Of a stretch of DNA of 64,000 nucleotides, positions 29,551 to 32,159 are shown in pieces. A program made the translations under genes and the position numbers. This stretch comes from Escherichia phage vB_Eco_BCPEco_001, in sequence record PV295200.1; one strand, 5' to 3'. Within the stretch, counting starts at the first letter, position 1; each line of letters starts with the position of its first letter. Under the pieces are notes generated by a model. The model was not told the DNA's origin and made no database searches. It saw nothing but the letters and a program-made list of their open reading frames with translations.

Positions 29551-30081
<531 letters not shown>

Positions 30082-30085
30082 AGTT

Positions 30086-30115
30086 GTTTACTTTCTCCTA
30101 GAATTGTGATAGTAT
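30086..30115 (+). promoter_or_regulatory. early promoter upstream of denV
   Basis: GTTTAC, 18 nt, TG-a-TAGTAT. Confidence 0.5.
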
Positions 30116-30140
30116 ATTCACAGTTACTTGGAGGGATAAA

Positions 30141-30557
30141 ATGACTCGTATTAATTTGACTTTAGTATCTGAACTTGCTGATCAACATTTAATCGCAGAA
30201 TACCGTGAATTGCCGCGTGTTTTTGGTATAGTTCGTAAGCATGTGGCAAACGGTAAGCGCGTTAAAGATTTTAAAATATCTTCTAAATTTATTTTAGGTT
30301 CTGGTCATGTTACTTTCTTTTACGATAAGTTAGAATTTTTGCGAAAGCGTCAATCGGACATTATAACGGAATGCTTAAAACGCGGGTTCAGTATAAAAGA
30401 TACTGAAGTTCCTGACATCAGCGATATTCCAGCAGAATGGAAAAATGATTATAACCCATGCAAATCGGCTATTAAATTGAGTCAACAACGACTCGATGAA
30501 AAAATTTTAATGAAGCCACACTGGTATAAATACTACGGCAAAAATATTTACATTTAA
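30141..30557 (+). CDS. denV: endonuclease V (pyrimidine dimer DNA glycosylase)
   Basis: 138 aa; [29 protein letters not shown]... recognisably T4 DenV with scattered substitutions. Confidence 0.85.
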
Positions 30558-30703
30558 ATAACATGGGAATAACCTGGACCTCATGATTCTGTGAGGGATT
30601 CCCGCCAACCTGTAATAAGGTCGAGCCCAAGTGCGGTAATGGGTAAATACAGAAATGGACAATTCATGCGCCATGGAATGGCCCAAACCTAGAGAGAACA
30701 AAA

Positions 30704-31243
30704 ATGAGAACATTTTTAACTGGTCCTTATCTATCCCTGATGAATGCTTTTACACACCATTCTGATGCTAGAGTAGAAGAAATTTGTAAAAACGATTATA
30801 TCCTATCATTTGAAGACTTACTTAAACAGTATTGCACACTTCGACTAGATGGTGGACGTCAATCCGGTAAATCAATTGCTGTGACTAACTTTGCTGCTAA
30901 TTGGTTGTATGATGGCGGAACAGTTATTGTTCTTTCTAATACTTCAGCTTACGCTAAAATTTCTGCAAATAACATCAAAAAGGAATTTTCGCGTTATTCT
31001 AATGATGATATACGTTTTCGTTTATTTACTGATTCTGTACGCAGTTTTATTGGTAATAAAGGAAGCAAGTTCAGAGGTTTATCGCTTTCGCGAATTTTGT
31101 ATATAATTGATGAGCCTGTCAAATCTCCTGATATGGATAAGATTTATGATGCTCATATTGACACTGTACAGTACTGCTGCAATAGTAAATGCTGCATTGG
31201 CGGTATTACTCGTCCGCAGTTTTTCGTAATTGGAATGCAATGA
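30704..31243 (+). CDS. small P-loop NTPase-like protein
   Basis: 179 aa; Walker A-like DGGRQSGKS and Walker B-like ILYIIDEP; Cys-rich C-terminus (CCNSKCC). Confidence 0.45.
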   Translation: MRTFLTGPYLSLMNAFTHHSDARVEEICKNDYILSFEDLLKQYCTLRLDGGRQSGKSIAVTNFAANWLYDGGTVIVLSNTSAYAKISANNIKKEFSRYSNDDIRFRLFTDSVRSFIGNKGSKFRGLSLSRILYIIDEPVKSPDMDKIYDAHIDTVQYCCNSKCCIGGITRPQFFVIGMQ

Positions 31244-31569
31244 TGACAGATACGCAACTTTTCGAATATCTTTATTTTTCGCCAAAAACTATTAAAAATA
31301 AATTGGTGAATCATTTTGAAATTTTGGCAAATAACAACGTCTTGAGCGAATTTTATCCCAAGCAATACAAATTACAAAAAGGTGTATTCAAAGGATGCAG
31401 AGTTTTGTGCACTGCTCCTAATGCAAGATTAATGAATAAAATTCCATATTTTACCATGGAATTTATTGATGGACCATTTAAAGGATTAATTACTCAAAGT
31501 TTAATGGCATATGATTCTGAGCCATTTTTAATTAAAGAACAATCTTGGATAAAATTATTTTCTAATTGA
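31240..31569 (+). CDS. hypothetical protein
   Basis: 109 aa from ATG at 31240 (ATGA overlap with upstream gene). Confidence 0.45.
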   Translation: MMTDTQLFEYLYFSPKTIKNKLVNHFEILANNNVLSEFYPKQYKLQKGVFKGCRVLCTAPNARLMNKIPYFTMEFIDGPFKGLITQSLMAYDSEPFLIKEQSWIKLFSN

Positions 31570-31575
31570 GGTTAT

Positions 31576-31938
31576 ATGAAAGCATATCAAATTCTTGAAG
31601 GCACACATAAAGGTACTATTTATTTTGAAGATGGTATTCAAGCACGAATTATTGTCTCTAAAACCTTTAAAGAGGACTCTTTTGTAGACCCAGAAATTTT
31701 CTATGGTTTGCATGCCCGTGAAATTGAAATTGAGCAACAGCCTACAGTTAAAATTGAAGGTGGTCAACACCTGAACGTTAACGTTCTGCGTCGTGAAACT
31801 CTGGAAGATGCAGTTAAGCATCCGGAAAAATATCCGCAGCTGACCATCCGTGTATCCGGTTATGCAGTTCGCTTTAACTCTCTGACTCCGGAACAGCAGC
31901 GCGACGTTATCGCTCGTACCTTTACCGAGAGTTTGTAA
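31576..31938 (+). CDS. autonomous glycyl radical cofactor (GrcA/YfiD-like) protein
   Basis: 120 aa; C-terminal about 64 residues ([60 protein letters not shown]) carry the glycyl radical motif RVSGY and match E. coli GrcA as recalled; this part uses GC-rich host-like codons. Confidence 0.8.
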
Positions 31939-32159
31939 TGGCAAAGATAATTATTGAAGGTTCTGAAGATGTGCTAAATGCTTTCGCCGAGTGGTTTAGT
32001 AATTCAGGCGAACAGCAATTTAATGAAGCCTGGAATATGGGTGATATTGATGGAATTTATCCTACGACAGAAATTTCTGTTCAGGGATATGGCATTCATG
32101 AACCTATTCGTTTAGTTGAATACGATTTATGCACTGGTGAGGAAGTCAAATATGATTGA
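31938..32159 (+). CDS. hypothetical acidic protein
   Basis: 73 aa ORF, ATGG overlap with upstream stop. Confidence 0.45.
   Translation: MAKIIIEGSEDVLNAFAEWFSNSGEQQFNEAWNMGDIDGIYPTTEISVQGYGIHEPIRLVEYDLCTGEEVKYD

Follow-up and report, generated by a model that had tools for sequence, protein, structure and literature searches.

What does a small, free-standing P-loop ATPase do among the early genes of a T4-like phage? The question is raised by a stretch of 64,000 nucleotides from Escherichia phage vB_Eco_BCPEco_001 (PV295200.1; the whole of this stretch is referred to here as the window). In it, a sequence-only reading had described a 179-residue open reading frame (ORF) at 30704-31243 as a small P-loop nucleoside triphosphatase-like protein, followed by a 109-residue ORF at 31240-31569 that overlaps it by ATGA (31240-31243). 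The coordinates, lengths and overlap are exact. We identify the two ORFs as the vs.8 and vs.7 genes, which are present in around 1000 sequenced T4-like phages, therapeutic candidates among them, and which have been without an assigned function since the T4 genome. What is new here is the class to which we assign Vs.8, that of a putative minimal terminase-related ATPase, together with a corrected start for its gene and a structured RNA upstream that lies outside Rfam.

Identity of the gene pair

Residues 41-219 of T4 Vs.8 (NP_049732, T4p119) share 96% identity with the 179-residue protein, and T4 Vs.7 (NP_049731) shares 97% with the 109-residue protein. Comparison of the ORF translations with the T4 map gives the order nudE-e-denV-vs.8-vs.7-vs.6...regB-vs.1-vs, which matches that of T4. 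Because both the identity to T4 and the gene order are shared, the locus is the vs.8-vs.7 pair. Assignment to the protein families leads to the same result: PHROG 1488 (unknown function) matches the 179-residue protein with E 4.4e-80 over residues 3-179, which together with the synteny to denV and vs.7 places it in the Vs.8 family, and PHROG 2049 matches the 109-residue protein with E 2.8e-54 over residues 1-109, which places it in the Vs.7 family. The phage itself is T4-like (Tequatrovirus), and the + strand of the window equals the minus (early) strand of T4. Positions 30141-31944 of the window are 100% identical to Shigella phage SHFML-11 and two other phages; many Tequatrovirus genomes match them at about 98%. 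The standalone ATPase that had been called unexplained is indeed a single domain whose function is blank, but its gene and the next already carry names in T4, so that it is unexplained in function rather than undiscovered.

The features of the two coding regions are as follows.

30704..31243, + strand: vs.8 orthologue, 179 residues, a single-domain P-loop ATPase-like protein of the additional strand catalytic glutamate (ASCE) type (T4 identity, PHROG 1488, AlphaFold2 (AF2) model, gp17 profile match)
30848..30874, + strand: Walker A motif or P-loop, D49-GGRQSGKS-57, with a terminase-style Arg-Gln in the loop (conservation; aligns to SRQLGKTT of gp17)
31040..31078, + strand: R113 and R124-G125, candidate arginine finger or sensor (conservation; R124-G125 aligns to the RG of gp17 just upstream of Walker B)
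31094..31117, + strand: Walker B motif, I131-LYIIDEP-138, with D136 and the catalytic-type E137 (conservation; aligns to MIYIDE of gp17 in 3ezk)
31175..31195, + strand: Cys-rich stretch C158-C164, a lineage-specific variable loop (variable or deleted in relatives; predicted local distance difference test score (pLDDT) below 50 at residues 161-167)
31232..31245, + strand: vs.8/vs.7 junction GGAATGCAATGATG, which encodes the Vs.8 C terminus G-M-Q-stop and holds GGA and the ATG of vs.7
31240..31569, + strand: vs.7 orthologue, 109 residues (MMTDTQ...) (T4 identity, PHROG 2049, family alignment)

The catalytic motifs of Vs.8 are its most conserved positions

We collected homologues of Vs.8 by a word-indexed search, which gave 27, and by an exhaustive profile search of 1.84 billion representatives, which gave 50 at E <= 0.001. 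All 50 are small proteins (66-259 residues), and every genomic context that was recovered is that of a T4-like phage. In GenBank, Vs.8 is found in 1009 phage records and Vs.7 in 929, with the Vs.8 protein intact in about 1000 phage genomes. Conservation was measured on an alignment of 36 members reaching down to 21% identity, of which 18 form a closer subset.

Both motifs singled out by the sequence-only reading hold up well in this alignment. The first, DGGRQSGKS (residues 49-57), contains G50-GRQSGKS-57, which fits the Walker A pattern GxxxxGK[ST], and its K56 is invariant in the 36 members. The second, ILYIIDEP (residues 131-138), is a Walker B motif of the hhhhDE type, in which L132-YIIDE-137 supplies the catalytic Glu of ASCE proteins. 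At least 90% conservation is seen for G51, R52, Q53, G55, R113, E137 and G177. R124-G125, P138 and the C-terminal F-F-V-I-G-M-Q are kept in most members, and the closer subset of 18 shows no change at R113, R124 or G125. Thus, the catalytic motifs are the most constrained positions of the protein, the opposite of what fortuitous motifs would give. Judged by sequence, Vs.8 retains every class of residue for ATP binding and hydrolysis: the Lys and Ser of the P-loop, the Asp-Glu of Walker B and the conserved arginines.

The Cys-rich C terminus fared less well. C158, C159, C163 and C164 are present, but the segment varies or is deleted in relatives, and nowhere else does the model fall below a pLDDT of 50; the segment is therefore a loop specific to the lineage and no metal site of the family.

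In seven distant relatives (P0056, P0058, P0060, P0063, P0066, P0067 and P0068; E 1e-6 to 5e-4) the Walker A Lys is replaced by His (RxSGH[ST]T), and DEP by VD[CV]A or IDCS. They may form a catalytically altered or inactive sister family. The contigs around P0056 are only about 0.5 kb long and gave no functional clue; nor did the context of another distant Vs.8-like protein, P0051, whose gene is flanked by gene 39 and rIIA in a distantly related T4-like phage. Some GenBank records (hits H27, H36 and H60; P0005, P0006 and P0070) label Vs.8 or Vs.7 homologues as 'endoribonuclease', and some as 'helicase-like'. We found no support for either label. The former, which has no basis in the sequences, was probably carried over from the nearby RegB.

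Vs.8 resembles the ATPase core of the large terminase gp17

The AF2 model of Vs.8, made from an 18-sequence alignment, has a pLDDT of 82.5 and a predicted template modelling score of 0.83. It consists of two N-terminal helices followed by five strands alternating with helices. Judged by this alternation and by its structural matches, the predicted fold is of the three-layer alpha/beta kind expected of ASCE proteins. In a Foldseek search of the PDB the model matched ASCE P-loop ATPases only: the SLFN11 helicase domain, RecD, RecD2, the N-domain of phi29 gp16, UvsW, F1 and KaiC. The predicted fold is therefore in keeping with the earlier description of a small P-loop NTPase-like protein.

The phi29 gp16 N-domain (5hd9) shares the ASCE fold and is of similar size, with template modelling (TM) scores of 0.44-0.47. 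Domain 1A of superfamily 1 (SF1) helicases (RecD, RecD2 and SLFN11) has the ASCE fold in common with Vs.8, but Vs.8 has no second RecA-like domain and no motifs Ia, V and VI. The two RecA-like domains and motifs I-VI of an SF1 helicase are accordingly not found in what is a single domain of 179 residues. Sequence identity of Vs.8 to phi29 gp16 and the SF1 helicases is 11-19%. Among viral models in BFVD, Vs.8 matched many uncharacterised proteins of 145-175 residues from large phages with TM scores of 0.5-0.7, including those of Proteus phiP4-3, Vibrio JSF10, Aeromonas phiAS5 and Aes012, the jumbo Pseudomonas phages 201phi2-1 and PhiPA3, Acinetobacter 133 and Bacillus SPO1 (gp34.44). These proteins share the size and predicted fold of Vs.8 at 10-26% identity, which widens the spread of the fold and adds no function.

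Sequence profiles point to one ATPase lineage in particular. Scans of Vs.8 and Vs.7 with Pfam, NCBIfam and PADLOC gave nothing above threshold (the best PADLOC match was HerA, E 0.007), and Vs.8 alone gave only sub-threshold Pfam matches, to AAA_14 (E 0.014), Terminase_6N (E 0.11) and AAA_30 (E 0.24). Its second match in PHROGs, after PHROG 1488, is PHROG_2 (terminase large subunit), with E 9.3e-6 over residues 46-150. A search of the PDB sequences with Vs.8 alone was marginal and an 18-member profile did no better; gp17 was reached only with the 36-member profile. Run against all PDB sequences, this profile has as its top match RB49 gp17 (3ezk; E 1.8e-5, profile positions 24-144), in an alignment that begins before Walker A and takes in the RG and Walker B, and it also matches T4 gp17 (2o0h, E 3.6e-5; 3cpe, E 9.5e-5). 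When the 36 members were scanned one by one with Pfam, the matches were to AAA_14 in 26, to Terminase_6N in 17 (best E 1.4e-4, below threshold) and, weakly, to AAA_30 in 10 and AAA_19 in 4. In line with these searches, ATPase subdomain I of gp17 (2o0h, 3cpe and 3ezk; Terminase_6N) resembles Vs.8 in having an Arg-Gln in the P-loop before Gly-Lys-Ser/Thr, then the RG, then hhhhDE, in the same order. Profile searches, which might have exposed the motifs as fortuitous, thus had the opposite outcome: the motif columns are the most conserved and the family profile matches a P-loop ATPase of solved structure.

The differences from gp17 are as clear as the likeness. gp17 has about 610 residues; Vs.8 has 179, lies in an early-gene block, ends in G-M-Q and is not required for growth. 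ATPase subdomain II and the RNase-H-like nuclease domain are absent from Vs.8, whose last residue, 179, follows strand 5 directly. Because these two domains and the coupling motif are missing, Vs.8 is not a terminase. We conclude, with moderate confidence, that Vs.8 belongs to the ASCE ATPases and that, of the relatives detectable by sequence, the ATPase core of the T4-type large terminase gp17 is the nearest.

Vs.7 usually follows Vs.8

In the complete loci, a search with a Vs.7 hidden Markov model found a Vs.7-like ORF directly downstream of vs.8 in 31 of 34. The junction itself is kept as ATGA or TAATG in about 33 of 35 IMG/VR loci, including those in which the proteins have diverged to about 40% identity. 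The second ORF had been called a translationally coupled partner on the strength of its overlap. Such overlaps are common in this genome, so that a stop/start overlap says little by itself. The part of the claim that stands is the adjacency of the two genes in most loci; it is this conserved adjacency, and not the overlap, that constitutes real evidence for a functional vs.8/vs.7 pair, and it argues for the partnership without proving it.

The conserved core of Vs.7 spans about 55 residues and contains two GPxKG-like turns (Y.F..GPFKG...AP...LMN..P.F..EFI.GP.KG..T.SL..YD), the N-terminal 40 residues being optional. A longer frame, starting at an upstream ATG at 31189, would give a product of 126 residues; the homologue alignment and the T4 annotation favour the start at 31240. 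Pfam, PHROGs, NCBIfam and PADLOC assign no function to Vs.7, and its AF2 model, from a 4-sequence alignment, was too poor for a fold search (pLDDT 54.7) and was not used. The Vs.7 homologues P0069-P0077 carry a precomputed Pfam label, PF26834, which is not in the local Pfam copy.

A structured RNA lies upstream of vs.8

The 146-nucleotide spacer between denV and vs.8 keeps its nucleotide sequence even between loci in which Vs.8 identity is only 35-45%, with indels that are not multiples of three. Neither a plain minimum free energy fold of the spacer, which was no better than shuffles (z 0.45), nor RNAalifold on the raw MAFFT alignment, which gave only 9 pairs, indicated a structure; the structure came only from manual covariation analysis. 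Its elements in the window are the following.

30565..30685, + strand: structured RNA of about 120 nucleotides (covariance model 83 bits, covariation)
30565-70 with 30598-603, + strand: H0, closing stem, GGGAAU with AUUCCC
30579-83 with 30592-96, + strand: H1, hairpin, CCUCA with UGAGG
30605-07 with 30640-42, + strand: H3, CCA with UGG, enclosing H2 and the joiner
30608-11 with 30618-21, + strand: H2, ACCU with AGGU, the invariant hairpin ACCU-GUAAUA-AGGU
30622-39, + strand: invariant joiner CGAGCCCAAGUGCGGUAA
30670-73 with 30679-82, + strand: H5, GCCA with UGGC

Stem H4, and the pseudoknot that joins its loop to the 5' internal loop, have an ambiguous register in this T4-type copy. The conserved RNA as a whole measures about 120-140 nucleotides.

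Across 18 sequences, 91.3% of alignment cells pair in this structure, compared with 23-46% when the partners are slid. Double changes occur at nine pairs, including all four of the pseudoknot, and the covariation score of 0.213 (0.072 in shuffles) was reached by none of 500 shuffles. A covariance model built only from copies that are not of the T4 type recovers the window copy (30565-30685) with 83 bits and E 3e-21 as its sole match in the 64 kb. The same model finds the RNA in 34 of 35 metagenomic Vs.8 loci and in T4 (NC_000866, about 64,818-64,938; L001 4319-4439, minus strand), where it falls inside the annotated vs.8 coding sequence. In 30 of the 35 loci and in T4, 10-30 nucleotides separate the end of the RNA from the vs.8 start codon; in four more loci the RNA is about 410 nucleotides upstream.

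Some loci depart from the simple arrangement. An extra ORF (MKTYKEFITEAKAP...) separates the RNA from vs.8 in L017-L019 and L030 (at about 2590-2995), so that the RNA is not adjacent to the gene. Two diverged copies of the RNA stand in tandem upstream of vs.8 in L012 (2716-2969), L022 (2723-2976), L014 and L033, and an extra hairpin is inserted in the H4 loop in L010-L016 and L020.

The RNA is not confined to phages that carry vs.8. It occurs at 22-43 bits in at least 19 non-T4-like viral contigs, with no Vs.8 homologue within the fetched flanks, and its neighbours there are tRNA genes, lysis genes, terminase genes, an HNH endonuclease gene and tail genes. For these non-T4 copies pairing reaches 88.5% of cells (30-46% with slid partners) and compensatory changes are seen at 16 of 22 pairs, in an alignment that was itself fitted to the model. 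The negative control, 100 matches to the RNA seed pattern from bacterial genomes, yielded one marginal match. Because the RNA is found also in phages without Vs.8, it is an element independent of Vs.8, and the variety of its neighbours speaks against a regulator dedicated to vs.8.

Rfam 15 (4227 families) has no relevant match in 30400-30850 at E <= 10, and at its gathering score none in the whole window or in six non-T4 loci with the motif. The RNA sequence was not found in the searchable literature either. Novelty was thus judged against Rfam 15 and the searchable literature, and the RNA may already be among the 10,006 unnamed candidates of PMC10690425. It is like such candidates, and like the gene 32 leader pseudoknot and phi29 packaging RNA (pRNA), in being a compact, covariation-supported, pseudoknotted element in a phage intergenic region. 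A T4 early promoter within the RNA (GTTTAC...AATTAT) was considered as the cause of the conservation and rejected, as T4-type copies lack it, and a scan for promoters and terminators between denV and vs.8 found nothing convincing. We also noted short resemblances to the lambda boxB hairpin, the 530 loop of 16S RNA and a segment of RNase P, which we presume to be chance.

On the evidence of its pairing and distribution, the element is an independent, phage-specific structured RNA that matches no Rfam family and whose function is blank. It matters apart from the proteins, being present in T4 and in unrelated phages and absent from Rfam. We entertain only as a tentative idea that it represents a new functional class, such as a self-cleaving ribozyme, a ligand sensor or a host-factor sponge, hidden in T4 by its annotation as the first 40 codons of vs.8, and that in T4-like phages it might form an RNA-protein module with Vs.8 and Vs.7.

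The start of vs.8 and the published knock-down

The T4 and window pairs have the same gene order and ATGA junction, but T4 Vs.8 is annotated as 40 codons longer. The T4 annotation gives it 219 residues (NC_000866 64,253-64,912; L001 3754-4413) and so reaches about 40 codons into the structured RNA. In the window (30594-30703), a TAG closes the frame of this 40-residue extension and a 7-nucleotide deletion disrupts it, with the DNA of the region about 94% identical to T4 and unusually G+C-rich. The proteins of the Vs.8 family all begin M-(K/R)-x-x-L-T, and a suitable initiation site precedes this sequence.

30692..30706, + strand: Shine-Dalgarno-like GAGAG (30692-96) and AUG of vs.8 (30704) (family N termini; closed upstream frame)

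Counted from the first ATG, the vs.8 ORF encodes 170-199 residues across the loci, and gene callers arrive at 170-199 in other phages according to the AUG of the RNA that they choose. A coding role for the denV/vs.8 spacer was rejected on three grounds: its indels are not multiples of three, its frame is closed in the window and these ORF lengths vary. The start of vs.8 is probably at 30704, giving 179 residues in the window and about 175-181 in the family, with the N-terminal extension of T4 Vs.8 being structured RNA. The correction from 219 to 179 residues matters for the design of expression constructs and for the reading of knock-down screens.

We found no functional study of vs.8 or vs.7 in the literature. 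Both genes were covered by a genome-wide CRISPRi-ART knock-down in T4, which lists them as of 'unknown function' and 'Not Fit' (PMC11879866, supplementary files 8, 15 and 25), with scores of 0.37 for vs.8 (p 0.38) and -0.11 for vs.7 (p 0.54) (PMC11879866). The three vs.8 guides were placed at the annotated start, which falls within the RNA (T4 64887-64937; PMC11879866, supplementary file 25). This is about 100 nucleotides upstream of the likely true ribosome-binding site.

Proposed role and alternatives

We propose that Vs.8 is a single-domain, gp17-related ASCE ATPase that works as a homo-oligomer, with Vs.7 as its usual adaptor or regulator, that the two form an accessory module and that the RNA upstream is independent of them; for these points taken jointly, our confidence is somewhat better than even. 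Vs.8 would derive from a gp17-like ATPase core. A homo-oligomer, possibly a ring, is expected because single-domain ASCE ATPases need a second subunit and because R124-G125 aligns with the RG of gp17. In it, R124 and/or R113 of one subunit would complete the active site of its neighbour, an arrangement found in packaging motors; in other large terminases the arginine at the position equivalent to the gp17 RG acts in trans. The ATP would be spent on a DNA, RNA or host-protein substrate in the pre-late phase, before late gene expression. Vs.7 would be translated by re-initiation at the overlapping stop and start and would serve as a usual, not obligatory, adaptor or regulator. The module would be accessory and dispensable in the laboratory, and its use, like that of its neighbours, would probably lie in host take-over or counter-defence. 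As an intact minimal terminase-related ATPase, Vs.8 offers a concrete experimental handle.

A number of observations weigh against this proposal. The top structural matches of Vs.8 are helicases and not terminases, and their TM scores are 0.40-0.48 despite Foldseek probabilities of 0.98-1.0. The link to terminases has E values of 1e-5 to 1e-4 and is partly driven by the P-loop region. Terminase_6N scores 12.6 bits on the window protein against a gathering threshold of 22, and hhalign gave no match between the Vs.8 family and an unrelated large terminase (L084). The coupling motif of small polar residues, TTT in gp17, is absent, and Vs.8 has F-F-V-I-G-M-Q-stop after strand 4. As to the partnership, overlaps of 1-11 nucleotides between stop and start occur at 23 of the 89 + strand ORF junctions in the window (26%), and Vs.8 occurs without Vs.7 in four loci (L021, L035, L036 and L150), in the first three of which a vs.5-like ORF follows vs.8 in place of Vs.7; the distant Vs.8-like gene between gene 39 and rIIA is without Vs.7. 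The guides of the knock-down screen sit on a mis-annotated start and may not have silenced Vs.8, in which case 'Not Fit' speaks more of the RNA than of the protein. Finally, the activity, oligomeric state and substrate proposed for Vs.8 are all inferred.

The chief rival to this oligomeric ATPase is a counter-defence protein that is not a motor: a look-alike of the terminase ATPase domain produced early in infection, or a generic NTPase, that binds, titrates or mis-activates a host sensor or depletes or modifies a nucleotide signal, with Vs.7 as its specificity subunit. The module's dispensability in the laboratory, its confinement to one phage lineage in which it is nearly universal (1009 phage records), and its setting among accessory early genes (denV, vs.6/GrcA, regB and tk.4) would all suit such a role, and an anti-CBASS sponge has been reported for T4 vs.4, a gene of this block. 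The similarity of Vs.8 to gp17 would suit it too, some Avs immune sensors being known to recognise the ATPase domains of large terminases; however, binding to a sensor of the Avs type is expected to trigger it, not to block it. The strict conservation of the Lys, the Asp-Glu and the Arg likewise points to a working enzyme and not to a passive decoy, and no anti-defence family was matched, HerA at E 0.007 being all that PADLOC offered. We regard counter-defence in place of an ATPase motor as unlikely, albeit worth keeping in view; the two are compatible, as an oligomeric ATPase could itself serve in counter-defence. Less probable by a good deal is a small P-loop kinase acting on a nucleotide, nucleoside or polynucleotide. 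At about 180 residues Vs.8 has the typical size, T4 early regions encode enzymes of nucleotide metabolism and the PDB profile search gave weak matches to uridine-cytidine kinases (E 0.1-0.9) and to the signal recognition particle receptor GTPase (E 0.009), but the conserved Glu after Walker B (IIDEP) is a hallmark of ASCE proteins, the significant fold matches are all to ASCE ATPases and none to a kinase, and the best sequence matches are to gp17.

That the RNA ends so close to the vs.8 start codon in 30 of 35 loci and in T4 could mean that Vs.8 works with it, in the way that the phi29 gp16 ATPase works with pRNA, or that it controls vs.8-vs.7 translation in cis in the manner of a riboswitch. 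In some unrelated phages the RNA is also near terminase genes, lying between tRNA genes and the large terminase gene in L084 and after a terminase gene in L081. Yet the contigs outside the T4 group, at least 19 of them, have the RNA among mixed neighbours with no Vs.8 homologue in the fetched flanks, L035 and L150 have Vs.8-like genes without the RNA, and inspection revealed no conserved alternative pairing with the vs.8 ribosome-binding site; a joint function of this kind seems to us improbable. We give next to no credence to the view that the Walker-like motifs are accidental and the ORF a decaying remnant or some protein other than an NTPase. Although no Pfam or NCBIfam model reaches threshold, the motifs are the most conserved positions across 50 representative clusters, the predicted fold is confidently ATPase-like and about 1000 phage genomes carry the protein intact.

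Neighbouring genes

The gene pair is flanked by two genes of recognisable function.

30141..30557, + strand: denV (endonuclease V), upstream neighbour (ORF translation, T4 map, annotations of matching records)
31576..31938, + strand: vs.6 orthologue, GrcA/YfiD-like autonomous glycyl-radical cofactor, downstream neighbour (Pfam Gly_radical, E 2.5e-18; T4 annotation)

The accessory genes of the early block around vs.8 are denV, vs.6/GrcA, regB and the macro-domain-like tk.4. The resemblance of the vs.6 product to GrcA/YfiD was already known for T4; as a neighbour of the ATPase pair it is worth noting. The T4 late-promoter consensus, TATAAATA, occurs in the window at 30526-30533, within the 3' end of denV and 30 nucleotides before the RNA; T4 carries TACAAATA at this place, and the sequence in the window may be a chance match in an A+T-rich genome. 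On the other side of denV, the lysozyme gene e precedes it directly here (window 29587-30557), with ipIII and ipII, which lie between the two genes in T4 (64,939-66,997), absent at this position.

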